A stretch of 35,700 bases of DNA from Bacteroidota bacterium (GCA_947481365.1 CANKGI010000003.1:1-35700), one strand, 5' to 3'. Positions 1-28,254 are shown, counted from the first letter of the stretch. Numbers and translations: made by a program. The notes: generated by a model from the letters alone, not told the origin.

Positions 1-35
1 ATTTAAATATACTTTCAGTTTTCTTTTTTTTATTC

Positions 36-225
36 ATACTTTTTTTAGAAAAAAGTATTGCAAACCAGCCTGCCATATTGCAGCTTTCCGGCTGGCAGGA
101 AAGCGGACGATTTAATACGCTTCGATGACTGCTCGCAAAACCCAACCGCCTCTTGGGCAACAGTCATCCCCATTGCGCAAAAGGCTGCCGCGCCAAATCG
201 TCCATTTGCTCACGCGCAATGACAT
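36..225 (-). other. Structured non-coding element (dispersed MITE/REP-like repeat or ncRNA candidate) ending in a terminator-like hairpin
   Basis: GC-rich island in AT-rich DNA with several perfect complementary pairs: 36-45/49-58 (ATACTTTTTT/AAAAAAGTAT), 69-75/93-99, 83-89/98-104, 105-113/195-203, 124-131/161-168, 141-145/153-157 and 171-178/214-221. It begins about 8 nt after the stop codon of the minus-strand T9SS gene; the strand is assumed from that gene. Confidence 0.6.
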
Positions 226-232
226 TAAGATT

Positions 233-1660
233 TTATTTTATCACCGACACCTTTTGTGTTTTAATTAAACTGCCTGCTGCATCTTTTATGTAAACAAAAT
301 ACAACCCTTGCGACAATTCTTGTAAGTTGATGGTTATGTTATTTGTAAAAGAAATATTTGATGTAACGGCTTTACCTGTTAAATCAAATAATTGTGCGGT
401 AATTTTTTGGTTGCTGCTTGTTTGTATATTTAATATTGAGGTTGCCGGGTTGGGGTAAATAGTAATCGCTTCTGTCTGTTTATCTCTTTTGGTTTCATCA
501 ATTCCCAAATAAGCAAACTCTCCTTTTTCATTTAGTTTAACAATATATAATTCTGCATTGGCAGTATCTAATAAATTTGATACTCCTGAACCAACAATGC
601 TATTATCGGGCAATTGCAAAATAGAATTCAAATAACACCTAGTTTGATTATACCAGAATATTTTTTGAATGTTCAAGTTGCTGTCAATTTTCATAAAATA
701 ACTTCCCCCTAACAGGCAGCCATTATCACTTGTTGCAGTAACAACATATACATTTGCAAGTAATGTATCTCCAACGCGTGGATTAAAATAATTAATATAC
801 TTAATAATATTTCCATTCAAATCTATTTTGAATAAAGTACTTTTCATCGGAATGGTAGCACTGTTATAATCCGCTAAAAGCAGAATGCTATTGCTATCTT
901 TTGACAAACATGAACTCAAATATCTGCTATATGGATAAATAAGCGGTTTGCTTATTTTAATATTGAAAGCCGTATCCATCTGTACAAAATATAACGAATC
1001 CCAATACGTTACTACAAACATGTCGTAAATGGTATCGTTGGGTTGAATAAGGTTAATAATGTATTCAAATTTTGGAATTTTTAACTCCTTCTTTTTAAGA
1101 GTATATCCATCATTGCCAATTTCGATTAAAAGTGGATATGATGTGTATGTAACAACACTATCAAGTTTACCCCATACGTAGCCATAGATCAAAGCTGAAT
1201 TATGATTATTGCGTTTTGTTATACCCATGCACTTGGACTCGTGAGTACCTGTATAAACTGAATCCCATAAAAGTTGTCCGTTCTTAGATAATTTGATTAC
1301 TCGAAAGTTTGCAAGAGCAGGACCCTTTTCAGTGGTACCAGCAATTAGAAGATTGCCATCTTGCATTTCAATACAACCAGACACATCATCGTTAATACCT
1401 GGTTCGCCATAGTGTTGTTTCCATAATATGTTACCGCACGAATCAATTTTCACAATAGCCATGTCTGTGGTGTTACCGCTTGATAAAACAGTGTCATAAC
1501 AAGACATCACAGTTAAAAAACCGCCATCATTTGTTTGAATATGGTAAGTCCTATGGGTAATTACATCAAGGTAGTAATTGTAAATATGCTCAAAAGTGCA
1601 TTGCCCAAATGCTACACCCGAAAAAACTAAAAAGCATACAATTAACTTATACCTCAACAT
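233..1660 (-). CDS. T9SS type A sorting domain-containing secreted protein, probable beta-propeller
   Basis: Signal peptide ending AFG|Q. C-terminal domain ITIYPNPATSILNI...LFDLTGK...INLQELSQGLYFVYI...TQKVSVIK. About seven repeats resembling xxKxDxxGN (IVKIDSCGNILW, VIKLSKNGQLLW, LFKIDLNGNII, FMKIDSNLNI, IVKLNEKGE). Confidence 0.9.
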   Translation of the reverse strand: MLRYKLIVCFLVFSGVAFGQCTFEHIYNYYLDVITHRTYHIQTNDGGFLTVMSCYDTVLSSGNTTDMAIVKIDSCGNILWKQHYGEPGINDDVSGCIEMQDGNLLIAGTTEKGPALANFRVIKLSKNGQLLWDSVYTGTHESKCMGITKRNNHNSALIYGYVWGKLDSVVTYTSYPLLIEIGNDGYTLKKKELKIPKFEYIINLIQPNDTIYDMFVVTYWDSLYFVQMDTAFNIKISKPLIYPYSRYLSSCLSKDSNSILLLADYNSATIPMKSTLFKIDLNGNIIKYINYFNPRVGDTLLANVYVVTATSDNGCLLGGSYFMKIDSNLNIQKIFWYNQTRCYLNSILQLPDNSIVGSGVSNLLDTANAELYIVKLNEKGEFAYLGIDETKRDKQTEAITIYPNPATSILNIQTSSNQKITAQLFDLTGKAVTSNISFTNNITINLQELSQGLYFVYIKDAAGSLIKTQKVSVIK

Positions 1661-6569: not shown

Positions 6570-8465
6570 ATGCTCAATCAAATATTTGATAAAATAAGAA
6601 AAGTAAAAAGATCGCAAGGACAAATGTGGATGAATGGCAATTTCACTTTTTTCAGGCTGTTTATCATGTTGAAATCGCGCACTGGACAAAAGAAAATACT
6701 CAAATTTATTATCAAAGTCATTCAATTTATACTTCAACTAGTATTTGGTATTAAGACGAAAGAAACAAAAGATTATGAGTTATGGATGAAGAAAAATTAT
6801 CCTGATGAACAAAAGTTAAACCAATACAAAAATGAACTTTCCTCCTTTTCATTTCAGCCTAAAATAAGTATCATTTTACCTGTTTATAATACTCCTATAA
6901 ACTACTTAATAGAAGCACTCGATTCGGTTATCAATCAAATTTATCCCAATTGGGAATTGTGTATTTCTGATGATTGCTCTACTGATAATATGATCCGTGA
7001 AATGATTATTGAATATGCAGCAAACGACAATCGAATCAAATATGTTTTTAGAGATGTAAATGGCCACATATCATTAAACTCGAACAGTGCGCTTGAAATT
7101 GCTACAGGTGATTATATTACTTTTTTAGACCATGATGATAAGCTTTCATTAGATGCACTTTTTCAAAATGTAAAAATTTTAAATAACAACAGAGAAATTG
7201 ATTTCATTTATTCTGATGAAGATAAAATAGACAAGAAAGGTCATCATTTTGCACCACATTTTAAACCCGACTGGTGTCCGGATAATCTCTTGTCAAGAAA
7301 TTATATTTGCCATCTTGTTGTCGTAAAAAAATCGCTCATTGATCAGGTAGGTGGATTCAGAGCAGGCTTTGAAGGAAGTCAGGATTACGACTTACTGCTG
7401 CGATTAACTGAAATTGCTAAAATAATATATCACATACCAAAAATACTTTATCACTGGCGACTGCACAGTGAATCAACATCATCAAACATTGATGCAAAAC
7501 CATACGCATTTAATTCGGGTGAACTTGCACTTCAGAAAGCAATAGAGAGAAGAGGAATAAAAGGCAAAGTAAATTTGATTAAAAATTCTCATGGTTTTTA
7601 TACTATCAGATATGATATTTTTAATAAAGGAAAAGTTTCTGTTATCATCCCTACAAAAGACAAAGCCGATTTATGTGAAGTAATTATCGAATCGATTTTC
7701 AGACTAACAAGTTATCCCGATTTTGAAATTATCCTGATTAATAATAACAGCAGCGAACAATCATTTTTTGATTTCGTAAAAAAGTGGGAAGAAAAAGAAC
7801 CCGAACGTTTTAAATGTATTCACGATAATGATGTATTTAATTACTCGCGTTTAATTAACAACGGAGCTAAAGTTGCCAAAGGAGAATATTTTTTGTTACT
7901 GAACAACGACATGGAAGTGATTCATGAAGATTGGATGACTGCACTTGTTGAATATGCACAATTTGAAACAAGCGGAGCCGTAGGTGCCCGACTAATTTAC
8001 CCCAATGATACCATACAACATGCAGGAGTAATTATTGGCTTAGGAGGAATAGCTGGTCATCATCATGTGATGTTTGATAAAGATGCTCCAGGATATTATT
8101 TCTACTTAATTGCCACAAGTGATTTTTCGGCTGTTACTGCTGCTTGTATTATGATTAACAAAAATAAATTTAATGAAGTTGAAGGGTTTGATGAAAAACT
8201 TGCGGTTGAGTTTAATGATGTTGATTTTTGTTTGAAGCTTAAAGAAAAAGGATACAACAATATATACCTTCCTCATGTAACGCTGTATCATTACGAATCT
8301 ATTTCTAGAGGGCATCCGCACCTTACAAAAAAATCATATCAGCAGCATTTGAAAGATGTAAATCTATTTAAAAGTAGGTGGCAAAAATATATAGATAACG
8401 ACCCTTGTTATAATCCTAATTTATCAAAAATATCGAGCGAGTACAAGGTGAATTTAGATGACTAA
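6570..8465 (+). CDS. Two-domain glycosyltransferase family 2 (RfbC-like)
   Basis: First GT-A domain: ISIILPVYNT, DDCS, FLDHDD, YSDEDK, GSQDYDL. Second GT-A domain: VSVIIPTKD, LLNNDME, AVTAAC, NDVDFCL, HYESISRG. Confidence 0.92.
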   Translation: MLNQIFDKIRKVKRSQGQMWMNGNFTFFRLFIMLKSRTGQKKILKFIIKVIQFILQLVFGIKTKETKDYELWMKKNYPDEQKLNQYKNELSSFSFQPKISIILPVYNTPINYLIEALDSVINQIYPNWELCISDDCSTDNMIREMIIEYAANDNRIKYVFRDVNGHISLNSNSALEIATGDYITFLDHDDKLSLDALFQNVKILNNNREIDFIYSDEDKIDKKGHHFAPHFKPDWCPDNLLSRNYICHLVVVKKSLIDQVGGFRAGFEGSQDYDLLLRLTEIAKIIYHIPKILYHWRLHSESTSSNIDAKPYAFNSGELALQKAIERRGIKGKVNLIKNSHGFYTIRYDIFNKGKVSVIIPTKDKADLCEVIIESIFRLTSYPDFEIILINNNSSEQSFFDFVKKWEEKEPERFKCIHDNDVFNYSRLINNGAKVAKGEYFLLLNNDMEVIHEDWMTALVEYAQFETSGAVGARLIYPNDTIQHAGVIIGLGGIAGHHHVMFDKDAPGYYFYLIATSDFSAVTAACIMINKNKFNEVEGFDEKLAVEFNDVDFCLKLKEKGYNNIYLPHVTLYHYESISRGHPHLTKKSYQQHLKDVNLFKSRWQKYIDNDPCYNPNLSKISSEYKVNLDD

Positions 8466-14078: not shown

Positions 14079-14435
14079 TGTAAATTGTTAATGAACGCAA
14101 TTTAAAGAATTGTAGATAAGAGCCAACAATATTTATATGAGATTTATGTTGAAAACAATTATCAAATAACAATCTATTTCAAACTGTACTACTTAAGTTT
14201 TATCGTTTTACTTATAAAGTGTATTGTACAATAACAGTTGATATTTGCGGCAAATAAATTTATGATATAAACTATTCTTTCATGGGTTTGAATCTTTTTT
14301 CGAAAGATGAAAGCATCAATTGGTTTATGAGGATTTTTATAAACTTTTAAATATCATTTCTGCCCAAGTTCAATTCATCATTGGAAATATTGTAATTTTT
14401 CAAGTGGTGTTTTTTTGACATCATGATTTCCGTTT

Positions 14436-15384: not shown

Positions 15385-16701
15385 TCATTCAACATTCCTT
15401 TCACCTGAATGATAATGTGGAAAATATTTATTCATAAAAGTCTTGTCGTTAGCAATTTCGGGAGGCAGAAGTAATGCTGAATTTACAAAATACTCGAGCA
15501 TTTCATGTAAAACAATATCTGGTTTATTATCAATCACTCGCGAAACAGGAATTGTTTCCATCCATGCGTAAGTTGAAGTTTTGAAAGTGGGTGTAAGAAA
15601 ATTCCTGAGATGCTCTGAATAACTATCACGAACTACAAATATTTTCAAATGATTCACTTCATGCTCCATTTTAAAAGTAAAATAATTCCCTACAAGATGC
15701 ACTGTATCATAATCACCAACAACTAGAGGTGGCTGTATATTTTTGAGATGGTAATAAAATATTGGAGAAGAAATCTGATCACTAAACCCAAATTGCGTTT
15801 GCAAATCTCCTCCTAATAAAGTTGATGAATCGATTGTAAAATCTTCTGCCTGTAAAATTTTAGTATCTGGAAAATCAACTTGAATTTTTTGCATAACTTT
15901 TTGGTATGCTAAAAATGCTCCGAATTCATTCCAATGTGTATCGGTTATATAATAAGTTGGTCGAATATTTTTTCCCTCAATGAGTTCCTTTCTGCAATCA
16001 ATAAATTTTATAATAGTATCCTGTTGTAAATAGGTATACACCTGATCGAGTTTAGAAAACTTTAACTGATTTCTCAGAATAATCGGCATGTTCTCGGGAT
16101 AAATTCTTGACTTAACAGGCGCAATCATAAAGTAATATTTTATCCCCCTGTTGTCAAACCATTTAGTAACAATTTGAAGATTTATTTTAATGGTTTTTAA
16201 CTCATCATTTGTATATGGAACACTGGTACATTCAATATATTCATTACCTGAATTGTACAACCAATTCTCTTTGCCTATAAGAACTTTTTGCGGCAGCGGA
16301 GAAATATTCAGAAAAATAAATTTGAATTTATTTATGGCCATCACCGAAATATTTCGGTAAGCAAATCTGTCGTTAAAATAATCTTGAAATTGAAAAAATA
16401 CTTTCCAAATATTTTCGGTTTGAAAAGTTGGAAACTCGGCTAAACTTCTTTTCTCTAAACTTGATTTTTCCTTCTCACCCAACATTGGAAAATAAATAAT
16501 GATAAGAAATGACAGTATAAAAAATAGTTTGCTAAATGAAAGCAATGCGATGTGTTTCTTAAGTAAAAATATACTTAGAACAGCTATCACAAAACTTAAA
16601 CCCAAATTGAGTATGAGCGAAGTTGTAAGTTGAGCTATAACGATATAACATAACATCGAAAGATAAATGAACAACAAACTATATTTTAACTTGCTGCTCA
16701 T
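15385..16701 (-). CDS. AlgJ/AlgX-like SGNH O-acetyltransferase, membrane-anchored
   Basis: EKRSLAEFP, YFNDRFAYR, GKENWLY, APVKSRIYPE, catalytic TDTHWN (D-x-H), GGDL and RDSY (Ser). About three N-terminal TM segments. The ATG at 16701 overlaps the MBOAT stop (TGATG); the ORF track starts at the TTG at 16704. Confidence 0.85.
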   Translation of the reverse strand: MSSKLKYSLLFIYLSMLCYIVIAQLTTSLILNLGLSFVIAVLSIFLLKKHIALLSFSKLFFILSFLIIIYFPMLGEKEKSSLEKRSLAEFPTFQTENIWKVFFQFQDYFNDRFAYRNISVMAINKFKFIFLNISPLPQKVLIGKENWLYNSGNEYIECTSVPYTNDELKTIKINLQIVTKWFDNRGIKYYFMIAPVKSRIYPENMPIILRNQLKFSKLDQVYTYLQQDTIIKFIDCRKELIEGKNIRPTYYITDTHWNEFGAFLAYQKVMQKIQVDFPDTKILQAEDFTIDSSTLLGGDLQTQFGFSDQISSPIFYYHLKNIQPPLVVGDYDTVHLVGNYFTFKMEHEVNHLKIFVVRDSYSEHLRNFLTPTFKTSTYAWMETIPVSRVIDNKPDIVLHEMLEYFVNSALLLPPEIANDKTFMNKYFPHYHSGERNVE

Positions 16702-18134
16702 CAAAATCTGAAATATATAAATGGGTTATAAGTACCTGAAACCACGCTCAAGGCGGAGTAAACAAAAATCAAAATGAGTGACACTGATTTTATTGTACGA
16801 AAAGTTGACTTTACTGTTTGTATAGATATTGTTGACTGGTAAAGAATTTGAACGGTCTTTTTAAGCATAAAATTTATTCCGTTAACTGATAAAATTAAAC
16901 CTAGCATACAGCAAAATATATTTTCGCGATTTAGAAACATATCAATTGAGTAAATACTGTTCTTATTATAAATAAACAAGGACTGAATAAATGTTATCGA
17001 CTTTTCTAATGTTTCGGATCTGAAAAAAACCCAAGCCAACACTACCACGAAAATGGTGTAAAAATGCATAATAAAATTTCCTCCTCTACGAAGAAACTTT
17101 TCAAAACCCAATCTTTCGATAATCATAAAAAAACCATGAATCAAACCCCAAATAACAAAATTCCAGCTTGCACCATGCCAAAGGCCTGTAACAAAAAATA
17201 CAAATATCAGGTTAAAATAAACGCGTGATTTACTCACTCTGTTTCCGCCCATTGGAATGTATAAATAATCTCTGAACCAATTTGAAAGTGATATATGCCA
17301 ACGTTGCCAAAACTCGCGAACTGATTTTGCCTTATATGGAAAATTAAAATTCTCTAGAAAATCAAAACCAAGCATTTTACCTAATCCTATTGCCATATCA
17401 GAGTAACCCGAAAAATCAAAATACAATTGAAGTGAATAAGAAATAATAGCAAACCAAGTAGCTGAAGTTGATAATTGAGCCGGGCCTATATCAAATAATA
17501 AATCAGTTGTATAACCTAACGAATTGGCAATTATCACTTTCTTTCCCATGCCAATTATAAATCGTTGAATTCCTAATTGAAATTGTGCCGAATTCAAAAA
17601 TCTACCTGTAAACTGATAGGCTATATCTTTATATCGAATGATAGGTCCAGCAACAAGTTGAGGAAATAGGCTTATATAGAGTGTTAAGTCAACAAATGAT
17701 TTCTGAACTTTATTCTCTTTACGATAAACATCAATCAAATAAGAAATGCTGTGAAAAGTATAAAAAGAAATTCCAACAGGCAACTTCACTTTTGCAAATT
17801 TTATCGGGTCGATATGAAAATCCACCAAAAGGTAATTGATATTTTCTACTACAAAACTGCTGTACTTAAAAATGACCAACAACAATAAATTAACAAATAC
17901 GCCAACCGAAATGGCTGTTTTTGTTTTGCTCCTGTCAATCCATTTTCCAATAAAATAATTAAATGTAATGGAGAGCATCATTAAAACAATCATCTCTCCT
18001 TCACCAAAAACGTAAAACAAAATACTGAGAATTACCAGTACAGCATTTCTGAATTTAGAATTACGTGAAAGATATGCCAGTAGTAGCGTTACCGGCAAAA
18101 AGAAGAAAAGGAAAAACGGTGAACTGAATACCAT
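16701..18134 (-). CDS. MBOAT family O-acyltransferase (AlgI/DltB/PatA-like)
   Basis: LPVGISFYTF, FPQLVAGPI, YFDFSGYSDMAIG, FWQRWHISL, YIPMGGNR and GLWHGA (catalytic His); C-terminus PFIYFRF. Confidence 0.95.
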   Translation of the reverse strand: MVFSSPFFLFFFLPVTLLLAYLSRNSKFRNAVLVILSILFYVFGEGEMIVLMMLSITFNYFIGKWIDRSKTKTAISVGVFVNLLLLVIFKYSSFVVENINYLLVDFHIDPIKFAKVKLPVGISFYTFHSISYLIDVYRKENKVQKSFVDLTLYISLFPQLVAGPIIRYKDIAYQFTGRFLNSAQFQLGIQRFIIGMGKKVIIANSLGYTTDLLFDIGPAQLSTSATWFAIISYSLQLYFDFSGYSDMAIGLGKMLGFDFLENFNFPYKAKSVREFWQRWHISLSNWFRDYLYIPMGGNRVSKSRVYFNLIFVFFVTGLWHGASWNFVIWGLIHGFFMIIERLGFEKFLRRGGNFIMHFYTIFVVVLAWVFFRSETLEKSITFIQSLFIYNKNSIYSIDMFLNRENIFCCMLGLILSVNGINFMLKKTVQILYQSTISIQTVKSTFRTIKSVSLILIFVYSALSVVSGTYNPFIYFRF

Positions 18135-19067
18135 TTAAATTTTTATTTTTTTAATATCAGCTGAAATTAATTTCGAAAAATATGTAGCGCCATCTTTATT
18201 CAAATGTTCCTGATCTGAAAAATATGCGGCCTCAGTCAGGCTATTCGAATAGTCAATTAATTGATATGTTGAATCAATAACAGATTGAATTCTGTTCTTA
18301 AATCCTTTTGTTGATTTACGAAACTGAGGAGGTAAGCAAAACAACAATTGAATATTATTTTCACTGCATTTTTTCTGAATATTTAAAATGGAATTTCGAT
18401 AATCAAGATTCATTCTTAAAACAGAAAGATTGATATTGTTCATTTCAAAAACAGTATGCTCATCTTCCCCTTTTTTGTCAACCAATGTTGCTCCAAAGGA
18501 ATTTATATTTGTTGTTCGTGCGTCAGGTTTCTCTTTGCCAAAAAGCAAATATTTCAAAGCATTGATGAAATTTACATTTTGCCGATACGTATACGAAATG
18601 CTTGTTGCCAATTCGTTTTTTCCAAGTTCAGAATTTATTTTTTTACAGATAAATGGGTTGTCAACGTAAGGATACAAGACATCTTTCCTGAAAATGATTC
18701 CGCTTTTTGTGTACAACGCAGCGTAATCATCAACATTATAAATAACCAGTTTTGGTTTGTGTGCCGATTTTAAAACCAAGTCAAGTATGGTTTCATGGAA
18801 AATTGGATTTGAACCACTTTGTCCTAGATTATAACAACTCAATCCTGTATTTAATTTTATCTCTTCGGGCGAGTAATCGTTTAGTGCTTCTGATGAGCCA
18901 ATAATAACAACATCTGCCTCAATTTTATTTTCAAGAATCAGTTCAATACGGTTATCGTATTTCTGCTTTTTTGAAAACACAGATAAAACATATCCAATAA
19001 ATATATCACCTGAAATGAATATTAAAATGAAGAGTATATATTTTATATATTTTTTCATACTTCTCAT
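18135..19067 (-). CDS. SGNH-like MBOAT partner protein (DltD/PatB-like)
   Basis: Single N-terminal TM, IIGSS (block I Ser), YNLGQSG and FSDQEHLNKDGA (DxxH). The likely start is the ATG at 19067 or 19058, not 19103, which lies inside the upstream MBOAT. Confidence 0.8.
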   Translation of the reverse strand: MRSMKKYIKYILFILIFISGDIFIGYVLSVFSKKQKYDNRIELILENKIEADVVIIGSSEALNDYSPEEIKLNTGLSCYNLGQSGSNPIFHETILDLVLKSAHKPKLVIYNVDDYAALYTKSGIIFRKDVLYPYVDNPFICKKINSELGKNELATSISYTYRQNVNFINALKYLLFGKEKPDARTTNINSFGATLVDKKGEDEHTVFEMNNINLSVLRMNLDYRNSILNIQKKCSENNIQLLFCLPPQFRKSTKGFKNRIQSVIDSTYQLIDYSNSLTEAAYFSDQEHLNKDGATYFSKLISADIKKIKI

Positions 19068-19068
19068 C

Positions 19069-20541
19069 TCAAAATTGAAAATATACAAAAGGTGTTTCAA
19101 CAATATTCGACATCAGCATTATCGAAAATGCTGCAAAAAAGTAAATGCCAAATCGCTTAACCTGCGGAACTCTTTCCAAATATTCGTCTAATGTGGTGTT
19201 TCTTAATTTCCATTCAAAGTAAAAAAAAGCTGCGACAAAAAGGATGAGAACAGTGAAGGTTGTAAAATCGGTTCCGAGATACAAAAGATTTTGTCTCATG
19301 TTATTGGGATTATGCCAAATTTTCGATAACGAATCGCCAACATCGGTAAACATATTTAAAAAAAGTATGTAAGAATCATGAATATTTTTCGACCTGAAAA
19401 AAAATCCTCCAAATGCAAAAAGATGATAAATACAAATTGCTTGAATAATGTGTCTAATACTCGAATAATTTTTTAGCCAAGTTTTATTAATCAATTCTTT
19501 CCTATAGTCGCTTGTAGCTTTGGTGTATATTACGATGATACCATTGTATACGCCCCATGCAATGAAAGTCCAGTTTGCACCGTGCCAGAAACCGCTAATT
19601 AAAAACACAAACAAGAACACAAGCTGCCACTTCCATCTTTTTCTGATTAAGGGAAACAGTAAATAATCTCTAAACCAATTCATGAGAGATACGTGCCACT
19701 TACTCCAAAAACTATTAAACGATTTAGCAAAAAATGGAAGATCAAAATTTACCATTAAATCAATACCGAGTAATTTTGCCGAACCTCTTGCTATATCAGA
19801 ATACCCTGAAAAATCGCAATATACCTGCCATACAAAAAACAATAAAGCCAGATAAACTGAAGGTCCTTTTGAATTTTCGGGATTATCAAAAACAAAACTT
19901 ACAAGCACATTGATTTGATCGGCTATCACAATTTTTTTAAAGAGCCCCATTAAAATTAACCGTAACCCTTTAACAATATTCGACCATTCAAATTTTTGAT
20001 TGATATAAAACTGTGATAGTAAATGCTGTGGTCGTTCGATAGGACCTGCAACAAGCTGAGGAAAAAACATTACGTACAATGCATAAATTCCAAAATGACG
20101 CTCGGCTTTTTGTTTCCCTTTATAAATTTCGAGCGTATAACTCATTGCCTGAAAGGTGTGGAATGATAACCCGATTGGCAATAAAATGGATAAAAAAGGA
20201 AATTTATAGGTATGAATATTTAACGATTGAAATAATGCTTCAATGTTTTCGGTAAAAAAATTATAATACTTAAAAACACATAAAACACCAATGTTTGCAA
20301 CAAGACTTAGTTGCAGGTAAATTCCTTTTTTGTTTTGCGGAGCTGCTTCAATTAATATTCCAGCCAAATAATCTACCATGATTGTGAAGGCTAATATGAG
20401 AATATAAACCGGCACAAAAAACATATAGAAATAACAGCTGGCTGCTAAAAGTAATACCCATCGATATTTATGCGGAAGCACATAGTAAAATAGTGTTACT
20501 AATGGCAAAAAAATTAAATATTGGATGGAGTTAAATAGCAT
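19069..20541 (-). CDS. MBOAT family O-acyltransferase (AlgI/DltB-like)
   Basis: MLFNS, LPIGLSFHTFQ, FFPQLVAGPIER, YCDFSGYSDIA, FWSKWHVSL and GFWHGANW motifs; C-terminus PFVYFQF. Confidence 0.95.
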   Translation of the reverse strand: MLFNSIQYLIFLPLVTLFYYVLPHKYRWVLLLAASCYFYMFFVPVYILILAFTIMVDYLAGILIEAAPQNKKGIYLQLSLVANIGVLCVFKYYNFFTENIEALFQSLNIHTYKFPFLSILLPIGLSFHTFQAMSYTLEIYKGKQKAERHFGIYALYVMFFPQLVAGPIERPQHLLSQFYINQKFEWSNIVKGLRLILMGLFKKIVIADQINVLVSFVFDNPENSKGPSVYLALLFFVWQVYCDFSGYSDIARGSAKLLGIDLMVNFDLPFFAKSFNSFWSKWHVSLMNWFRDYLLFPLIRKRWKWQLVFLFVFLISGFWHGANWTFIAWGVYNGIIVIYTKATSDYRKELINKTWLKNYSSIRHIIQAICIYHLFAFGGFFFRSKNIHDSYILFLNMFTDVGDSLSKIWHNPNNMRQNLLYLGTDFTTFTVLILFVAAFFYFEWKLRNTTLDEYLERVPQVKRFGIYFFAAFSIMLMSNIVETPFVYFQF

Positions 20542-20770
20542 TTTTTGTTTTCTGTATGGCCTAAATTTATGTAATAAGTACTTTTAAGATTTACCAATTT
20601 CAAAAAAAGGTCTTTTTTACCTAATAACACCCGAATCTTACAATCATTAACCAACAACTCATTGTGAATAAATGATTCAATTAAGATATTCAGAATGGAA
20701 TCAAAAAAAATGTGAATATATGGGACAAGATTTTGAAAGTTAATTACCTAAATTTTAGATATTCGCAACG

Positions 20771-21886
20771 ATGAACACAAAAAGAAACAAATATTTTTTG
20801 CTATTCTTTATGGTTGTTGCATTCTTTCCTATCATTCAGGAAATTTTTCAACCCTTTAAATTAGTAGGATTATCAGGTGCCTTCGAAAATCATCAAGCCC
20901 CAGACTTTTCTACTCAAAATTTTTTAGACGGAAAATATCAAACAGGTGCTGATGAATATTTGAAAGAAAATACAGCCTTCCGTGCAGATATGATTAGATT
21001 GAGGAATCAAGCTAATTACAGTTTTTTTGGCAATATCAATACCATATTAACTTTAGGTAAGGAGCATTATATTTTCGATCCTAGTTACATTTCGGCTCTA
21101 AATGGCAATGATTTTCTAACTGATTCTATCCGTGATATAGAGACAAATTGTTTAATCAAATCATTACATATTTTAGATTCACTTCATATTCCGCTTATCT
21201 TTTGTATTGCGCCAAACAAAGCTTCATTTTACAATGAATTTTTGCCTCAAAAAACTGTTGAAGGAAATAAAACCAATCAAAAATATTTTGAAAAATTACT
21301 TACAGAAAACCATGTAAATGTGCTCAATTTCGATAGTTGGTTTAAATCTATTAAACAACAAAGCAAGTATCTGCTGATGCCAAAATATGGAGCACATTGG
21401 ACAATTTATGGTGCTTCTCTTGCAGGTGATTCACTATTTAAAATGGTTGAAAAAGTAAAGCAAAAGAAATATGCTTCGTTTTCGGTTTCCAGTTATGATG
21501 AATCATCAAAAGCAAAATACACAGATGATGATTATTTGCCAGCGCTAAATCTAATTGCGAGATGGAATTCTCCAATGATGGCATACCCTCAATTAAAATT
21601 TAATACGGGCGAAAAGCCAAACATCCTTGCCGTTTCTGATAGTTATTTCTGGAGTTTTTACGAACTCGAAATCATGCAAAATTGCGCTTCTCCTAAATCA
21701 GCAATGTGGTATTATAACAAATCGGTTTTTGATTATATGCGTGAAAAAAAATCGGAAAGAAATAATGCAATCAGTTATCAAGATTTAAAAAATAGAGATG
21801 CCATAATTATTTTGGCAGCAGCACCTAGCTTGAAAAATTTCGGATACAATTTTTTTGACCAACTTTCAAGCATCTCGTCAAAATGA
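20771..21886 (+). CDS. AlgJ/AlgX-related SGNH-like protein
   Basis: N-terminal TM, FRADMIRLRNQ, LGKEHYIF, APNKASFY.EFLP, GAHW..YGA and VSDSY; collinear with the protein at 15385-16701. Confidence 0.78.
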   Translation: MNTKRNKYFLLFFMVVAFFPIIQEIFQPFKLVGLSGAFENHQAPDFSTQNFLDGKYQTGADEYLKENTAFRADMIRLRNQANYSFFGNINTILTLGKEHYIFDPSYISALNGNDFLTDSIRDIETNCLIKSLHILDSLHIPLIFCIAPNKASFYNEFLPQKTVEGNKTNQKYFEKLLTENHVNVLNFDSWFKSIKQQSKYLLMPKYGAHWTIYGASLAGDSLFKMVEKVKQKKYASFSVSSYDESSKAKYTDDDYLPALNLIARWNSPMMAYPQLKFNTGEKPNILAVSDSYFWSFYELEIMQNCASPKSAMWYYNKSVFDYMREKKSERNNAISYQDLKNRDAIIILAAAPSLKNFGYNFFDQLSSISSK

Positions 21887-23373
21887 AAAAATATTCGCTC
21901 TATATTTTTATCATTATTCTCATGAGCAGCGGTATTTATTTTCATTTTAGTTCGTGCCACGAAGAAATGCCGAATGATTGTGATCAGTTTGGTTATTTAA
22001 ATTTATCGAAAGCATTTGATGAGCATAAAGTTTTTACGGCTCACGCCAATAGACCATATTTAGATGATTTACTCGACACACTTCGAAAATCAAATTTAGA
22101 TGAACGCGAATTTAGCTGGATGGTAACACCTCATGCCTATTACGTTTTACCTCACACTAACAAAGTCATAAACATGTACTCGCCCGGAACATCATTTGTT
22201 TTACACTTGATACCTATTGAGTATCGTAAAAGAATGTTCCCTGTGTTAGCTATATTTTTCCTCTTACTTTTTTCAATCATTGCATTGTATCGTGCTAACA
22301 ACAATACTTTTGGTTGGGCTGATATTATTTTACTATTATTTGCATTTTACATTACCGAAATAGTTCCTTTCAGAGCTGAGTTTGAACGCATCAATTCATT
22401 ATCCATCACATTTGGTTTATTGCTTGCTGCTGGGATATTATTAAGAAACAAACCACTGTTGAGCTGTTTCTTAATTGCACTTTCGGCAAACTTCAGGTAT
22501 GCAAATTTACTGCTGTTATTGCCTATCATTTTGTTCATCCCTCTTCCAAAAGTAATTTCAGTAAAGAAAGTTTTCGACATAATAAAAATCGGAATTACAT
22601 ATTTCGTAGTTACTCTTATCGCCATTTTGCCTCATTTAATTTATACGTATTTTTTATTGGGAAATCCGTTTAAATCAACTTATGCAGCAATTGATACTGC
22701 TATGAGTATGGATGTTTTAAAAAATTTGAATTTCTATTTTAATTACTCTCAACCTTGGTTCATATTTCATTTATTGCTGGTTGGTGTGATTGCTTATTTT
22801 GCCTATATACAAAAAACAACATGGCGATTTGTATTGTCGTTACTGGCCTTTCCGGTAATTAATTATTTGTTCTTCATTTTTAAAATGGTATCGATGAATT
22901 ACTATCCATATGGAAGTGCGTTTATTTTACTCGGTGCCATTTTATATATTTTAAAAGATGTAAATGTAAGTTTGCAGCAAGCTAAAAGGATTCAGATTGC
23001 ATGTGTTTTTATTTCCTTTTTAACATTTTCGTTTGGTATTATTTCATATTCATCAAAAAACCATCAATCATTTATCGAAGCAAAAAATGAGGTAAAAGGT
23101 TTGTGTTCATATGATATTATTTGGGGTGATTCTTATCCCGGAACTTCCGAATATGTTTGTACTAACAATGGCTTCAGGTATACATGGTCGACCATGAATG
23201 CCAGAATTATTGCAATGAAATTTCTTCACAACAGAAAATATTCACAGGCATTTATTCTTGATGAAATTCCCGTTGATGAAAAAATAATTGAAAGCGAAAT
23301 ACAGTCATGTAATTTGCTATATCATAAAATTCGAGACCCACATTTAGGAAATATTTTAATTATTGATAAATAA
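21883..23373 (+). CDS. Uncharacterised polytopic membrane protein, putative GT-C fold glycosyltransferase (paralogue A)
   Basis: N-terminal TM followed by an acidic CDQFGY motif and a large loop with YSPGT, then about ten more TMs, NFR, GNPF.STY and a small soluble C-terminal domain. ATGA overlap with the upstream gene. The CDS is secure; the function is inferred. Confidence 0.7.
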   Translation: MKKYSLYIFIIILMSSGIYFHFSSCHEEMPNDCDQFGYLNLSKAFDEHKVFTAHANRPYLDDLLDTLRKSNLDEREFSWMVTPHAYYVLPHTNKVINMYSPGTSFVLHLIPIEYRKRMFPVLAIFFLLLFSIIALYRANNNTFGWADIILLLFAFYITEIVPFRAEFERINSLSITFGLLLAAGILLRNKPLLSCFLIALSANFRYANLLLLLPIILFIPLPKVISVKKVFDIIKIGITYFVVTLIAILPHLIYTYFLLGNPFKSTYAAIDTAMSMDVLKNLNFYFNYSQPWFIFHLLLVGVIAYFAYIQKTTWRFVLSLLAFPVINYLFFIFKMVSMNYYPYGSAFILLGAILYILKDVNVSLQQAKRIQIACVFISFLTFSFGIISYSSKNHQSFIEAKNEVKGLCSYDIIWGDSYPGTSEYVCTNNGFRYTWSTMNARIIAMKFLHNRKYSQAFILDEIPVDEKIIESEIQSCNLLYHKIRDPHLGNILIIDK

Positions 23374-23384
23374 AAAATGAATTG

Positions 23385-24872
23385 ATGAATAAATACATTT
23401 TCTATTTAATTTTATTGATTTTATGCAGTACTGGTTTTTATTTAAAATTTCAAAAAAACCATCAGGATATCCCTATGCGTTGTGATGAATTCGGATACAT
23501 GAATTTAGCAAAAGTATTTGATGAAAACATCGCGTATGTTGAGCATACGAAAAGACCATACATGCCTAAACTTCTCGACACCTTGAGAAAATCATCGATA
23601 ACAGAAGAAGAAATAGATTGGATGGTCGTTCCGCATGCTTATTATGTTGTACCGAACACAAATAAAATTGTTAACCAATATCCTCCGGCAACTTCATGGT
23701 TGTTGAGTTTATTTCCTCTTGAACATCGTAGAATGCTGTTTCCATTAATTGCTGTATTTATTTTTTTATTGTTTCCTTTTTTATCTCAACTTAATATAAA
23801 ACAAAAAAAGGTAAACTGGACAGATTGTGCACTTGTCTTATTTGTTTTTATCATGTCTGTTAGCGTACCGTTCATAACAGAATTTGCTCGAATTAATTCG
23901 CTGGCATTCACGTTTGGATTACTATTAACGGCAGGAATGCTTGTTGAACGAAACACAATATTGGCATTCTTTTTAATTGCATTAACAATTAATTTCAGAC
24001 CAGTAAATATGCTGATGTTAATTCCAATAATCACGTTTATTCCCATCTCAACTTGGCTACGCGAAAAAAATTACACGGCTTTTATTACTGCTATTCTGAA
24101 ATATGTTGGTCTGCTTATTCTTGCTGTTCTTCCTTACTTTGTGTATGTGTATTTGTTGTTTGGAAATCCATTTATGTCAACGTATTCTTCTTACGATACT
24201 ACCGCAAATAACAACCTCTTTGAGAATATGCTTTTTTACTTCAACATAAATCGGCATTGGTTTATTTTTCATTTAGTGGTTGTTGGTGTATTACTTACTT
24301 TGTCGTTACTTAAAATTACTTCCTATACATTCTTTTTTCAAGCACTATTTTTTCCGATATTCAATTATGTTTTTTTTATCTACCATGATATTCATTTAGA
24401 TTATTATCCATATGCATCTTCCATTATTTTACTTGGCATCTGTATAGCTCAAATTCAAAAAATTCCTTACAAAATCAATCATACTAAAATTGCTCTTGTA
24501 TTTAGTTTACTTATCGGCATCACTATTTTTTGTGATGGATTATATACTTCATACAATAACCCGGTTCGTTCTTTTGAAGATGCAAAAAAAGACTATTCGT
24601 GCTTATGTAATTATGATATTGTTTGGGGAGAATTATTAACGGGAAGTTGCGAGTATGTATGCGGAAACAATGGATATAAATACAGTCCAACATCACCAAG
24701 GGCAAGAAAAATAGCTATGAAATTTTTACACGACCATCATTACAAACAAGCGATTTTATTAAACGATAATTTGGTAGATAAGCAAACAGTGATTGAAGAA
24801 GTTTTGTCTATTAATTTAAAATATCATATTGTATTTGATAACATTGTAAAAGAAATTTTAGTATTAGAATAA
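23385..24872 (+). CDS. Uncharacterised polytopic membrane protein, putative GT-C fold glycosyltransferase (paralogue B)
   Basis: Collinear with paralogue A: CDEFGY, LLDTLRKS, PHAYYV, QYPP, RINSL, GNPF.STY, YYPY, EYVC.NNG and IAMKFLH. ATG at 23385; the ORF track uses the TTG at 23382. Confidence 0.7.
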   Translation: MNKYIFYLILLILCSTGFYLKFQKNHQDIPMRCDEFGYMNLAKVFDENIAYVEHTKRPYMPKLLDTLRKSSITEEEIDWMVVPHAYYVVPNTNKIVNQYPPATSWLLSLFPLEHRRMLFPLIAVFIFLLFPFLSQLNIKQKKVNWTDCALVLFVFIMSVSVPFITEFARINSLAFTFGLLLTAGMLVERNTILAFFLIALTINFRPVNMLMLIPIITFIPISTWLREKNYTAFITAILKYVGLLILAVLPYFVYVYLLFGNPFMSTYSSYDTTANNNLFENMLFYFNINRHWFIFHLVVVGVLLTLSLLKITSYTFFFQALFFPIFNYVFFIYHDIHLDYYPYASSIILLGICIAQIQKIPYKINHTKIALVFSLLIGITIFCDGLYTSYNNPVRSFEDAKKDYSCLCNYDIVWGELLTGSCEYVCGNNGYKYSPTSPRARKIAMKFLHDHHYKQAILLNDNLVDKQTVIEEVLSINLKYHIVFDNIVKEILVLE

Positions 24873-26288
24873 ATGGTTTTTAGCAGCATAACATTCCTTG
24901 TGTATTTTTTGCCTTTCTTTTTGTTGGGGTATTATTTAGTACCCGACAGATTTAAAAATCGTTGGCTGGTTCTTGGAAGTCTTTTATTTTACAGCTGGGG
25001 TGCACCAAAATTCTTACCGGCTGTAATTGTTAGCTGCCTAATTGATTTTATTTGCGCATTAAATTACAAAAAGAAATACGGAAAATTCTGGTTTGTATTT
25101 TCTATTGTTTCAAACGTTTTGATGTTGGTATATTTTAAGTATGCCAATTTTTTTGCCGAGAACATTAATTCATTAACTGAAATTTTAGGTGGAAACAGAT
25201 TTCAATGGAGTGCTATTATTCTTCCTATTGGAATTTCATTTCTTACATTCCAAAAAATTAGCTACCTCACTGATGTATATCGTGGAGATTGTGAACCACA
25301 GAGGAACTTCACAAATTATCTTCTCTTTATCATTTTGTTTCCTCACTCTATTGCTGGTCCAATTATTCGTTACAAAGAAATTAGCGAACAGCTTGTAAAC
25401 CGCTTTAAGTTCATCACACCCGATTATATTATTTTAGGACTTACCCAATTTATCATTGGATTAAGTAAAAAAGTTTTGCTTTCAAACACATTAGGTGAAC
25501 AGGCAAATTCTATTTTTAATTTAAACTTAAATGAACTCGATTTTACGAAATCGTGGATTGGCATTTTATCTTATACGTTTCAAATATATCTCGACTTCTC
25601 AGGTTACTCTGATATGGCTATCGGACTTGGAAAAATGATGGGATTTAGAATTCCTGTCAATTTTAATTTCCCATATACATCAAAAAGCATAACCGAGTTT
25701 TGGAAACGTTGGCACATTACTTTGGGTAATTGGATGAAAGATTATTTATACATCCCGTTAGGTGGTAATAAAGTTACCATTAACAGAACTTACATCAATC
25801 TTTTGGTGGTATTTATTTTATCTGGTTTTTGGCATGGTGCAAGCTGGAGTTTTATTATTTGGGGAGCTTATCACGGCAGCTTTTTAATTATCGAAAGATT
25901 ATCACTCTCTAAAATTTTAAAAAGAATTCATCCGTCCATTTCAGTCACATATACATTTTTGGTGGTGATGATTGGATGGGTATTTTTTCGTTCGGCTGAA
26001 TACAACGATGCAATATTATTTATCAGAAAAATGTTTGATTTCGGAAGAATCGATTTCGCATTTTTGAGTACGTTAAACAATCGTTATTATTTTGTTCTAA
26101 TTACCGCATTTGTTTTCTCTTTTCAATCTGAAAAAATACAGCTTCAACTCAATGCTGTTTACGAAAAACAAATAACGATTAAAGGTTTTATTTGGATAAC
26201 TTATTTCGCTTTGCTACTGTTGTATCTGCTCAATTTAGGAGAATTATTCGCAACCGGATTTAATCCGTTTATCTATTTTAAGTTTTAA
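24873..26288 (+). CDS. MBOAT family O-acyltransferase (AlgI/DltB/PatA-like)
   Basis: LPIGISFLTFQ, IAGPIIRY, YLDFSGYSDMAIG, FWKRWHITL, YIPLGGN and GFWHGA motifs; C-terminus PFIYFKF. The ATG directly abuts the upstream TAA. Confidence 0.95.
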   Translation: MVFSSITFLVYFLPFFLLGYYLVPDRFKNRWLVLGSLLFYSWGAPKFLPAVIVSCLIDFICALNYKKKYGKFWFVFSIVSNVLMLVYFKYANFFAENINSLTEILGGNRFQWSAIILPIGISFLTFQKISYLTDVYRGDCEPQRNFTNYLLFIILFPHSIAGPIIRYKEISEQLVNRFKFITPDYIILGLTQFIIGLSKKVLLSNTLGEQANSIFNLNLNELDFTKSWIGILSYTFQIYLDFSGYSDMAIGLGKMMGFRIPVNFNFPYTSKSITEFWKRWHITLGNWMKDYLYIPLGGNKVTINRTYINLLVVFILSGFWHGASWSFIIWGAYHGSFLIIERLSLSKILKRIHPSISVTYTFLVVMIGWVFFRSAEYNDAILFIRKMFDFGRIDFAFLSTLNNRYYFVLITAFVFSFQSEKIQLQLNAVYEKQITIKGFIWITYFALLLLYLLNLGELFATGFNPFIYFKF

Positions 26289-26301
26289 GATTAGCGAAAA
26301 T

Positions 26302-28254
26302 TTATTCGTAAATTCTTTTCAGTAAAAATTCCTTTTTTGGTGCAATAACCAATGGAACTTTTTCAACTATTACCGAACTCGTATCAAGCCCAAATGCTTT
26401 TACTTCTGTAAGCGCAAAACGATCGAGCATAAAATAAAGATCCATAATAAATCGCTCGTATGCTGATAACTCATTTTCATATGAAAGATGACGTTGTAAA
26501 ACAACAAATCTGAAATCACCTGTTATATTTTGTTTGCTCAATGATGCATATCGTGATGTTACATCCACTTCATGTCTTTGCATCAAATCTTCAATCACTT
26601 TTCTGAAATAAAAATTGATTTTTTGCTCGACCCTGAAACCCAATTTAAACTCAACTTTTACTACATCTTGTGGAACAACAAAATCAACTTTGTATTCCAT
26701 TGTATATGGTTTATCATCAACATGAATATGCACAAACCAATATATATCGGCACGTTTAGGCTGTTTCTGTAATATCGAATACATCACCTTCGATTCAATG
26801 TCCATTAAATGATCGGCACTTGTTAAGTAAACTAAATGTGTTGCAAATTTTGGCACTGATGTATCATGACTTAGTTCTTGAAGTATCGGCAGATAATCGC
26901 GAAGGTTAACAAATTCGGTAAGTCGGTTTTTAATTTTTCTACCTTTAAACCACACCCACATTATTGCTATAAATCCAAGACTGATAAGTAAAGTTACCCA
27001 ACCACCATGACTAAACTTTTGAAGATTAGCTACTAAAAACGAAAGCTCAATCGACAAATACACAATCAGAATAATGGTAACAAACCATTTTGGAGCTTTA
27101 ATTTTTCGCAAATAATTGGCAAGCAAAACAGTTGTCATTAACATTGCAATGGTAATTGCCAAACCATATGCTGCACCCATGTTTGCCGATTCTTTAAAAT
27201 ATAAAACCACACCAATACAACCTGCCCATAAAATCCAATTTGCACTTGGAACATATAACTGACCTTTGGTTTCGGTAGGATATTTTACAGTAACCTTAGG
27301 CCACACGTTTAAACGCAATGCCTCAGAAATTAATGTAAACGATCCGCTAATTAATGCCTGACTGGCAATGATAGCAGCTAAAGTTGCAATGATAATTCCA
27401 GTGAGCAAAAACCATGGTGGCATTAATGAAAAGAAAGGATGCAAGCTAGCTGTTGGATGAAATACTTTTCCTTCAAACTGAAGCACCCAAGCACCTTGCC
27501 CCATGTAATTTAATATCAAAGCTACTTTAACAAAAATCCAACTCACACGAATATTTTGTCTTCCGCAATGTCCTAAATCTGAATACAAAGCCTCTGCTCC
27601 TGTTGTACAAAGAAAGACAGCTCCTAGTAACCAAAATCCTTCGGGATAATGAACCAATAAATTATATGCGTAATACGGATTAAGTGAAGCTAAAATTTGT
27701 GGATGTTGAGCCATCGATGTCAAACCCAAAATTGCCAACATCGAAAACCAAACTAACATAATCGGACCAAACGCTTTACCAACAAGTGTAGTTCCAATGC
27801 GTTGTATCACAAACAAAGATGTGATAATAATTAACACAATGGGAATGGTAGGAATATCTGCCTGCAAAATCCTCAAACCTTCCACAGCTGATGCTACAGA
27901 GATTGGAGGAGTAATAACTCCATCGGCAAGCAAAGCACAACCTCCAACAATTGCCGGAAAAATGAGATATGGTTTTCTTCTTCGAATGAGTGCATACAAT
28001 GAAAAAATGCCACCCTCCCCATTGTTATCGGCACGAAGTGTAATAATTACATATTTTAAAGTGGTTTGTAATGTAAGCGTCCAAAAAATACAGGAAAGAG
28101 AACCGTAAATCAGTTCCTTCGAAATCATTCTTCCTCCGATAATCTCATTAAATACATAAAGTGGAGAAGTACCAATATCTCCGTATATAATGCCGAGGGT
28201 AACTATTAAACCTGCTAAACTAAGCTTATGCGTATTGCTATGATGCTCGCTCAC
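26302..28254 (-). CDS. kup: KUP/HAK/KT potassium transporter
   Basis: LGIIYGDIGTSPLY, ADNNGEGG, TGAEALYSDLGH, ASQALISG and GQLYVP motifs; GTG start. Confidence 0.97.
   Translation of the reverse strand: MSEHHSNTHKLSLAGLIVTLGIIYGDIGTSPLYVFNEIIGGRMISKELIYGSLSCIFWTLTLQTTLKYVIITLRADNNGEGGIFSLYALIRRRKPYLIFPAIVGGCALLADGVITPPISVASAVEGLRILQADIPTIPIVLIIITSLFVIQRIGTTLVGKAFGPIMLVWFSMLAILGLTSMAQHPQILASLNPYYAYNLLVHYPEGFWLLGAVFLCTTGAEALYSDLGHCGRQNIRVSWIFVKVALILNYMGQGAWVLQFEGKVFHPTASLHPFFSLMPPWFLLTGIIIATLAAIIASQALISGSFTLISEALRLNVWPKVTVKYPTETKGQLYVPSANWILWAGCIGVVLYFKESANMGAAYGLAITIAMLMTTVLLANYLRKIKAPKWFVTIILIVYLSIELSFLVANLQKFSHGGWVTLLISLGFIAIMWVWFKGRKIKNRLTEFVNLRDYLPILQELSHDTSVPKFATHLVYLTSADHLMDIESKVMYSILQKQPKRADIYWFVHIHVDDKPYTMEYKVDFVVPQDVVKVEFKLGFRVEQKINFYFRKVIEDLMQRHEVDVTSRYASLSKQNITGDFRFVVLQRHLSYENELSAYERFIMDLYFMLDRFALTEVKAFGLDTSSVIVEKVPLVIAPKKEFLLKRIYE

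Follow-up and report, generated by a model that had tools for sequence, protein, structure and literature searches.

Which reaction would be carried out by two adjacent membrane proteins that match no annotated family and are encoded between genes for glycan acylation? The question is raised by a stretch of 35,700 nt from a Bacteroidota bacterium (GCA_947481365.1 CANKGI010000003.1:1-35700; this whole stretch is the window in what follows), in which the genes for two paralogues, A and B, lie in tandem. From the sequence alone, the original prediction had described them as diverged members of an uncharacterised family resembling GT-C glycosyltransferases and had suggested that they work in the periplasm. 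Our analysis supports a GT-C assignment at the level of predicted fold and of motifs, and we hold, with moderate confidence, that A and B are periplasmic, polyprenyl-phosphate-sugar-dependent GT-C enzymes that would add side chains to a polysaccharide exported by Wzm/Wzt. Fold, conserved residues, predicted topology and synteny carry this reading; the activity, the donor, the acceptor and a division of labour between A and B are what we infer.

The gene for A is an ATG-start open reading frame (ORF) of 496 aa (21883..23373, plus strand), and that for B, also of 496 aa, starts with TTG (23382..24872, plus strand). The ATG at 23385, one codon past the TTG at 23382, is the more likely start of B, giving 495 aa, since the profile match starts there and homologues begin with MNK or MKK. 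In a BLASTP comparison the two proteins shared 209/495 identities (42%) and 64% positives with 0 gaps (E 7e-148), which is far beyond chance. With amino-acid identity this low, synonymous sites are saturated for a dN/dS estimate. Visible in this alignment are all eleven of the motifs that had been listed for two collinear proteins of about 495 aa: CD[Q/E]FGYxNLxKxFDE, RPY..LLDTLRKS, WMVxPHAYYVxPxTNK, NxYxPxTS, EFxRINSL, NFR, GNPFxSTY, YYPY, LCxYDIxWG, EYVCxNNG and IAMKFLH. The transmembrane (TM) segments had been called substantially diverged, and indeed the late helices TM8-11 are the least conserved region between A and B (32% identity), compared with 55% in the first external loop, 42% in TM1, 41% in TM2-7 and 42% in the C-terminal domain. 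Of 88 well-conserved columns, A differs from the family consensus in 10 and B in 5, with all invariant residues kept in both. Two ORFs of 92 and 86 aa on the opposite strand of this region were treated as spurious because they overlap long, homologue-supported frames.

AlphaFold2 models built from a 34-sequence alignment had a predicted local distance difference test score (pLDDT) of 92.9 and a predicted template modelling score (pTM) of 0.90 for A, and of 92.1 and 0.91, respectively, for B. In the model of A, TM1 leads into an external loop of 85 residues, and the ~11 TM helices are followed by a C-terminal alpha/beta domain of ~105 aa; the count of ~11 helices in A and B, obtained from DSSP and hydropathy, is inside the range of 7-13 TM helices of the GT-C class. 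When A was compared with the PDB by Foldseek, the top match was ArnT (5EZM; E 3.5e-5, probability 1.00, TM-score 0.51/0.48), and all 11 matches at E<=0.001 were GT-C enzymes or complexes containing one (ArnT, ALG9, AglB, PglB, oligosaccharyltransferase (OST) and DPY19). The VIA structure search, which is independent of Foldseek and covered 48,161 representative chains, matched A with ArnT (5F15; Z 14.2, 409 residues aligned over 1..496), Pmt2 (13.1), ALG12 (13.1) and Pmt4 (12.9), and B with Pmt4 (Z 14.0), Pmt1 (13.6) and ArnT (13.1, 418 residues aligned). The top 19 rows for A and the top 20 for B were GT-C enzymes or entries of the glycosylphosphatidylinositol (GPI) transamidase; then followed an unrelated designed repeat protein at Z 6.3 for A and a row at Z 6.0 for B. 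Thus, the models of A and B both have a GT-C fold, in agreement with the GT-C-like character first proposed.

At the sequence level the connection is much fainter. Searches with A and B against Pfam-A and NCBIfam returned zero families at E<=1, so the description of the family as uncharacterised holds for both collections, and a phmmer search of A against PDB sequences returned nothing. Among 5.8 billion proteins, a word-indexed search found 33 relatives, all of about 470-510 aa; the three that carry a source name are all 'hypothetical', and two of the names include Bacteroidota or Bacteroidetes. A profile of these relatives, run against 1.84 billion cluster representatives, reached 381 at E<=0.001 and 83 at E<=1e-30. 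Against the PDB, the family profile gave a marginal match to GPI mannosyltransferase I (E 0.13), and a wider profile of 80 sequences gave a marginal match to TMEM260 (E 0.021). Among the 80 relatives, Pfam matches were to PMT_2 in 3 (best E 3.1e-5) and to GT87 in 1, and the distant relatives P0101 and P0106 scored 20.5 and 18.9 bits against PMT_2, under the cut-off of 26.1. The nearest clusters in the ESM Atlas are RgtA/B/C/D-like, LA_3751/LA_3752 putative glycosyltransferase and PMT_2-bearing. These apparent bridges to GT-C enzymes are individually weak, and all lead in the same direction. Given the uniform identity of the top structural rows, the significance of the Foldseek matches and these bridges, a chance resemblance is unlikely. 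We conclude that the family is new and previously unannotated, within the well-known enzyme class GT-C.

Residue conservation was counted in the close family (n=34) and in a wide set of 80 relatives reaching down to ~16% identity, with the numbering of A. D34, S172, R205 and Y341 are invariant in 80/80 relatives, and Y38 (79/80), Y267 (79/80), D271 (78/80) and C33 (74/80) are near-invariant. D34, the candidate catalytic Asp, belongs to the acidic motif C33-D34-Q35-F36-G37-Y38 (21979..21996, plus strand), to which the A-B alignment pairs C34-D35-E36-F37-G38-Y39 of B (23481..23498, plus strand); the codons of both were checked. It lies eight residues past TM1 (helix 3-26), inside the 85-residue loop with its two helices (33-46 and 60-69), as in GT-C enzymes. 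D-E-x-x-Y right after TM1 parallels P-D-E-(T/G)-R-Y-A at the same place in the ArnT of E. coli and C. metallidurans, and according to a passage of PMC5377068 the Tyr of this RYA motif is required in the ArnT of B. cenocepacia and Salmonella. As features shared by the GT-C/PMT clan, a section of PMC7801869 names two strictly conserved acidic residues of the first external loop and binding of the donor phosphate by Lys/Arg. By analogy with these phosphate-binding residues of solved GT-C enzymes (PMC7801869), R205 of the NFR motif (22495..22497, plus strand; R206 of B, 23997-23999), in a predicted periplasmic turn between two short helices, is a candidate donor-phosphate binder. Y341 of the YYPY motif (22903..22905, plus strand; Y342 of B, 24405-24407) is in the external loop before TM10, and hhalign pairs it with Y315 of E. 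coli ArnT (FFS..KLPTY) in a match so weak (probability 0.8%) that it serves as a motif hint only.

The predicted orientation in the membrane agrees with an extracytoplasmic active site. In an N-in topology the predicted cytoplasmic loops, which are short, have a K+R density of 0.15-0.39, compared with 0.04-0.08 in the predicted external loops, and this charge bias predicts that the loop after TM1 with D34 faces the periplasm, as expected if the acidic motif lies in the first external loop. Within the C-terminal domain, C408 and C426 (23104..23160, plus strand; C409 and C427 of B, 24606-24662) occur both, neither or singly in 27/4/3 of the close family and in 9/70/1 of the wide set, and this covariation places the domain in the periplasm, where the two residues probably form a disulfide. 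Conserved Cys had been proposed to form disulfides in general; this fits C408 and C426, which are gained or lost together, but not C33, which is invariant in the close family and has no conserved partner Cys. A lipoprotein or signal-peptide N-terminus of A was rejected, C25 being present in only 1/34 family members.

The surroundings of A and B in the window point to a glycan that is both exported and acylated. Together with their neighbours they make up a plus-strand unit of four genes in the order AlgX3, A, B, MBOAT3. The first encodes an AlgX/AlgJ-like SGNH-type partner, here AlgX3 (371 aa, 20771..21886, plus strand; Pfam ALGX E 2e-5, 24.9 bits with a cut-off of 26.5), and the last an MBOAT protein, MBOAT3 (471 aa, 24873..26288, plus strand; Pfam MBOAT E 8.9e-28). 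The AlgX3 stop overlaps the A start (ATGA, 21883-21886), A and B are separated by 8 nt, and the B stop at 24872 abuts the MBOAT ATG at 24873. The unit thus appears to be packed like an operon, and the pair is embedded among acylation genes as the original prediction stated. A scan for promoter and terminator consensus sequences over 20400-26500 found fewer promoter-like sites than in shuffles and nothing usable. Divergent from the unit lies a four-gene block on the minus strand (15385..20541) that encodes an AlgX-like protein (15385-16704), an MBOAT (16701-18134), a DUF1574-like protein (18135-19103) and a second MBOAT (19069-20541). Each of the three MBOATs is paired with an AlgX- or DUF1574-like protein, and all three end exactly in FxYxxF: FIYFRF (16701-18134, minus), FVYFQF (19069-20541, minus) and FIYFKF (24873-26288, plus). 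According to a part of PMC12148441, this ending has been shown to be the acyl-tyrosine shuttle motif of PatA, and the same is proposed there for further MBOAT-SGNH pairs of bacteria. That a single cassette encodes three distinct MBOAT/partner pairs suggests that they differ in acylation site or in acyl group.

Judged by its gene content, the window is a surface-polysaccharide locus. A double-GT2 protein (631 aa, 6570..8465, plus strand), with two Glycos_transf_2 stretches, is a candidate for the cytoplasmic chain-building glycosyltransferase of the glycan. The genes wzt (an ABC ATPase with Wzt_C; 11981-13204, minus strand; Pfam ABC_tran and Wzt_C) and wzm (an ABC-2 permease; 13230-14078, minus strand; Pfam ABC2_membrane) would encode the exporter of a polysaccharide completed in the cytoplasm. 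There is also a Wzy_C/O-antigen-ligase-family gene (3916-5214), and further glycan genes encode two GT4 enzymes, an initiating Bac_transf enzyme, three additional GT2 enzymes, a GT11, a methyltransferase and a mannose-1-phosphate guanylyltransferase.

We surveyed related loci by a pattern scan with one genome per species, which gave 40 loci, and sorted them by BLASTP with the cassette proteins of the window. An AlgX3 orthologue is directly upstream of the GT-C gene in 15/40 loci. In 12 of these, AlgX3-like, GT-C and MBOAT3-like genes are collinear (L004-L011, L013-L015 and L040), and in 3 the AlgX3-like gene is upstream and the cassette is cut by the contig end (L016, L031 and L041). Three loci have variant arrangements (L003, L012 and L036), and the remaining 22 have no MBOAT or AlgX neighbour. 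The divergent block AlgX1-MBOAT1-DUF1574-MBOAT2 stands in the same order upstream of the GT-C gene in 10 loci and in one more that is cut by a contig end. Next to the cassette, 11 loci encode a relative of the double-GT2 protein with 50-71% identity and a twelfth encodes one with 39%, and Wzt-like genes are near the cassette in 4 loci (L008, L036, L040 and L041), two of which also have Wzm-like genes.

On this basis we propose the following course of events. Each protein would be an inner-membrane enzyme of ~11 TM helices with a large periplasmic loop bearing the invariant D34 and a small periplasmic C-terminal domain, and its mechanism, modelled on that of ArnT, PMT and GtrC/GmlC/GT136 enzymes, would begin with the binding of a monosaccharide linked to polyprenyl phosphate and already flipped into the periplasmic leaflet. 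The donor phosphate would be held by the invariant R205 and Y341, D34 would activate an acceptor hydroxyl, and the sugar would be transferred as a side branch. The likely acceptor is a polysaccharide made in the cytoplasm by the initiating transferase, the GT2, GT4 and GT11 enzymes and the double-GT2 protein and exported by Wzm/Wzt; the cassette's three MBOAT/SGNH-like pairs would O-acylate this same polymer. A and B may differ in the position or in the kind of the sugars that they add. A model of post-polymerisation glycosylation in the periplasm by GT-C enzymes that covers ABC-exported O antigens is set out in a part of PMC11127046.

Among the closest known systems are those of the Gtr type (GtrA/GtrB/GtrC of Shigella and Salmonella, galactose addition in Klebsiella, and the GT136 enzyme ORF12 of Citrobacter). 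As sections of PMC11127046 describe them, they resemble A and B in having a GT-C enzyme in or near an O-polysaccharide locus, ABC-dependent loci included, and their GT-C enzymes add side-chain sugars after export. Like GT136 when it was founded, the A/B family shows no similarity in sequence to any GT-C family that has a Pfam or NCBIfam model. Unlike in the Gtr type, the GT-C gene sits between SGNH-like and MBOAT genes, and a donor synthase and a GtrA-type flippase are not linked to it in the window or the cassette. Compared with the MBOAT-SGNH pairs PatA/PatB, AlgI/AlgJ/AlgX and DltB/DltD, the cassette MBOATs carry the FxYxxF end that a passage of PMC12148441 gives for PatA and other bacterial MBOATs; our open-text searches found no description, for any of these pairs, of a GT-C-fold gene between the SGNH-like and MBOAT genes. 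Likewise, word searches of open-access full texts, which exclude supplements and do not prove absence, found no paper on the family, nor one on a GT-C gene in this position.

With regard to the donor, the window has no GtrA/GtrB-type gene, as first noted and as searches for both types confirmed; the best GtrB/ArnC-like match scored 40 bits over positions 8-116 of 316 only. No GtrA-family flippase is linked in the window, MATE and SMR flippases lying outside that search, and in the cassette loci no linked GtrB/ArnC-like GT2 gene was found except one that is 8 kb away in L012. Other contigs of the genome hold four ArnC/GtrB-like matches (131-167 bits), three over nearly the whole model and the fourth cut by a contig end, and the sole GtrA-family match of the genome is on contig C172, outside the window. 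Lipid-linked sugar donors are therefore available, though unlinked. The genome also encodes at least 4 canonical PMT_2 proteins. In two distant relatives of the GT-C gene, from a SAR324 metagenome-assembled genome (L019:3237-3959, plus strand) and from Pelagicoccus mobilis (L030:9098-9850, plus strand), a gene for a GT2 of 240-250 aa is directly upstream on the same strand. The leading NCBIfam matches of these GT2 proteins, all under the cut-off, are mostly polyprenyl- or dolichyl-phosphate sugar synthases and include AglJ, PgfS, ArnC, PpgS and a dolichyl-phosphate hexose transferase. They are candidate donor synthases for the wider family, in an arrangement that recalls the classic pairing of donor synthase and GT-C enzyme.

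Several observations weigh against side-chain glycosylation as the role of A and B. Neither reaches a Pfam or NCBIfam GT-C model, and by hidden Markov model gathering score both fall outside PMT_2/PMT (GT39, GT83), with 0 families at E<=1. Alignment by hhalign to ArnT was not significant (a short local match, probability 0.8%), the ArnT alignment used being of low diversity (7 sequences at 76-100% identity, picked from 120 listed), and two canonical PMT_2 proteins encoded by the source genome likewise gave short local matches, with a probability of 0.9-9%; when one of the genome's canonical PMT_2 proteins was itself compared with the PDB, it had no match. Helical models can attain VIA Z scores of ~13-14 without proven kinship, as the tool itself cautions, and among the VIA matches at Z 8-11 are GPI-transamidase subunits, which are not glycosyltransferases. 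D34, R205 and Y341 are likened to known catalytic residues by the position of their motifs only, and a shared predicted fold does not demonstrate function. The window and the conserved cassette are without donor synthase or flippase, unlike most described three-component systems. Finally, outside the Bacteroidota cassette the neighbours are heterogeneous: in 20 loci, 74 ORFs are no more than two genes away from the GT-C gene, and a scan of 69 of them, five short or cut ORFs being omitted, found 113 Pfam families in these flanking proteins, none in more than 3. The link with MBOAT genes thus belongs to the Bacteroidota clade, and the acceptor may differ across the family.

A stronger version of the proposal is that the AlgX-like, GT-C and MBOAT proteins form one coupled periplasmic machine that installs an acylated sugar branch, which we regard as unlikely. 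The GT-C enzyme would then either add a side-chain sugar for acylation in situ by its own MBOAT/SGNH pair, or receive a polyprenyl-phosphate sugar that the MBOAT pair has acylated before transfer. The second variant recalls the suggestion, in the original prediction, of an MBOAT-acylated lipid-linked sugar as donor, and such an exotic donor is not needed, given the four ArnC/GtrB-like genes and the one GtrA-family gene on other contigs. Were the coupled machine real, the two known routes by which glycans are modified after export would be fused in it, physically and functionally, with duplicated GT-C copies diversifying the branch.

We also find it improbable that A and B are GT-C glycosyltransferases with another acceptor, either lipid A/core, as for ArnT, or a periplasmic or outer-membrane protein, as for PMT-type enzymes. 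ArnT and the Pmt enzymes are the closest structures, and relatives outside Bacteroidota lie in unrelated contexts without a glycan locus. ArnT (GT83; 5EZM and 5F15), the transferase of L-Ara4N from undecaprenyl phosphate to lipid A, is the best or near-best structural match over the whole length, and its small periplasmic C-terminal domain aligns with that of A and B (409-418 residues aligned over 1..496). The sizes are similar (496 aa in A/B, 550 aa in ArnT), identity is ~8-10%, and the YFEKP motif of ArnT is not seen in the A/B family consensus; 13 TM helices are reported for ArnT in a section of PMC5377068, compared with the ~11 predicted here. Pmt1, Pmt2 and Pmt4 (GT39) match at Z 12.9-14.0 over the membrane domain of A/B (residues 1 to ~395), and the acidic motif in the first luminal loop, which a passage of PMC7801869 gives as the hallmark of the PMT clan, is common to A and B. 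Unlike PMTs, A and B are bacterial and periplasmic and have no MIR domain, and whereas PMTs work as dimers, most genomes here hold a single GT-C copy. What speaks for a polysaccharide acceptor is the genetic context, which for ArnT is the arn operon and for A and B a polysaccharide locus: no arnABCD-type lipid A modification genes are in the window, and the Bacteroidota gene stays with MBOAT/SGNH-like pairs, with double-GT2 and, in four loci, with Wzt-like genes, a context of polymer building and modification.

Less probable is a non-glycosyl, accessory role in acylation, in which the protein would serve as a holder of the lipid-linked polymer or as a scaffold for the AlgX-like/MBOAT pair, comparable to the non-catalytic subunit of GPI transamidase, whose chains match at Z 8-11. 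The tight coupling of the AlgX-like, GT-C and MBOAT genes, by overlapping or abutting codons, in 12-15 of the 40 loci would suit such a role, and AlgX3 could need a helper, since its lineage is without the Asp of D-x-H-W in 16/16 sequences. However, D34, R205 and Y341 are invariant even in relatives with no MBOAT or AlgX neighbour, which points to an activity of the protein itself, and L036 has a GT-C gene with neither AlgX3 nor MBOAT3.

Oligosaccharyltransferases have a large C-terminal domain with a WWDYG motif. En-bloc transfer from an undecaprenyl-pyrophosphate-linked glycan by an oligosaccharyltransferase- or ligase-like enzyme, which would account for the lack of an undecaprenyl-phosphate-sugar synthase or flippase in the cassette and has AglB, PglB and STT3 among the structural matches (Foldseek E 2.4e-4 to 8e-4), is very improbable, because the OST-type VIA scores (Z 7.5-10.6) are below the 13-14 of ArnT, PMT and ALG12, the C-terminal domain of A and B, unlike that of STT3/PglB/AglB, is small (only ~105 residues), WWD is absent from both, and the window already has its Wzy_C/O-antigen-ligase-family gene.

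Side-chain glycosylation of the exported polymer thus being the reading we prefer, we asked how A and B relate to each other. They are the only copies of the GT-C family in the source genome. In a quick tree with support from the SH-like approximate likelihood ratio test (SH-aLRT), they are not sisters; both fall in one 14-row clade inside which the branching is not resolved. B shares 51% identity with the single-copy gene of L003 and 42% with A. Two GT-C copies occur in only 3/40 loci (L008, L013 and L015), and the second copies of these form a clade of their own, apart from the clade holding A and B. Because of these separate clades the duplications seem to have arisen independently, and that of the window seems not to be recent. 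The old duplication that had been proposed for A and B is consistent with this as regards age; that A and B descend directly from one duplication fits less well, as they are not sisters, B is nearer to L003, and the branching of the clade is not settled.

Two suggestions about a partnership of A and B fared less well. An obligate heterodimer is unlikely, as 37/40 related loci are without a second full copy; with mostly one GT-C copy per genome, a heterodimer is not required. Prediction of an A-B complex gave a score of 0.00 (mark 0.32), which is neither for nor against binding. The contrast of DQ in A with DE in B, taken at first as a possible mark of distinct specificities, deserves little weight: position 35 (Q in A, E in B) is variable in the wider family (E in only 22 of 80 relatives, S in 16, P in 16, Q in 5 and N in 5) and is no strong sign of different specificity.

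As an accessory module the family is rare and patchily distributed, and nearly all of its known carriers are uncultured bacteria. Searches found it in none of 400 other Bacteroidota genomes, sampled evenly across 180 genera, and in 1 of 40 related genomes (G421, of the same taxonomic family), which again holds two copies in tandem; three genomes of the source genus, 69-93% complete, gave no match.

GT-C enzymes shape surface-glycan structure and thereby serotype, recognition by phages and predators, and barrier properties, and one characterised member is still enough to found a new GT-C family, as happened with GT136 in 2024. The fixed position of the GT-C gene between SGNH-like and MBOAT genes, amid three acyl-transfer pairs, points to a heavily decorated polysaccharide, glycosylated and multiply acylated, and makes the cassette a natural case for asking if periplasmic glycosylation and acylation are coordinated. 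The invariance of D34, R205 and Y341 makes them direct targets for mutagenesis. For annotation, two 'hypothetical proteins' and ~380 clusters of relatives become predicted GT-C-fold glycosyltransferases.

Some features of the cassette and its flanks deserve mention in their own right. The AlgX3 lineage (the window and the orthologues in L004-L016, L031, L040 and L041) has Y-G-A-H-W in place of the D-T-H-W of the cassette's other AlgX-like protein. Gly replaces the Asp in 16/16 sequences, while both AlgX-like lineages keep the His and a later D-S pair without exception; AlgX3 may use a Ser-His dyad, or another acid in place of the missing Asp. Two ORFs are each split in two, namely the AlgX3-like gene of L011 (8841-9966) and the GT-C gene of L038 (1334-2700); a frameshift, decay of the copy or an assembly error could account for each.

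Most cassette loci hold one more gene, for a membrane protein of ~390-397 aa, which lies between the MBOAT2 and AlgX3-like genes; an example is L006:7679-8869 (minus strand), and equivalents of this ~395-aa gene are present in L003, L004, L008, L010, L012, L013, L015, L036 and L040. The window lacks it, only 230 bp (20541-20771) lying between the flanking genes. Four copies of the protein that were scanned against Pfam had no match; one copy compared with NCBIfam matched AZOBR_p60025, 'cell surface glycopolymer formation protein' (E 3.9e-42, 144 bits with a cut-off of 150), and in the ESM Atlas it is closest to RgtA/B/C/D-like clusters, so that the cassette may encode a second GT-C-like protein here. 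A 400-aa ORF of the window without a Pfam or NCBIfam match (34482-35684, minus strand) was considered as the window's version of this AZOBR_p60025-like gene and rejected, the comparison having revealed no similarity.

The window also differs from other genomes in the spacing of its cassette. Genes for three GT2 proteins, a GT11 (fucosyltransferase family), a DUF268/methyltransferase, Wzt and Wzm (8462-15227, minus strand) lie between the double-GT2 gene and the acylation block, which directly adjoin each other elsewhere, and the locus has a modular, rearranged look. At the edge of the glycan locus (233-1660, minus strand) is a gene for a 475-aa protein with the type IX secretion sorting domain Por_Secre_tail (E 2.9e-15).

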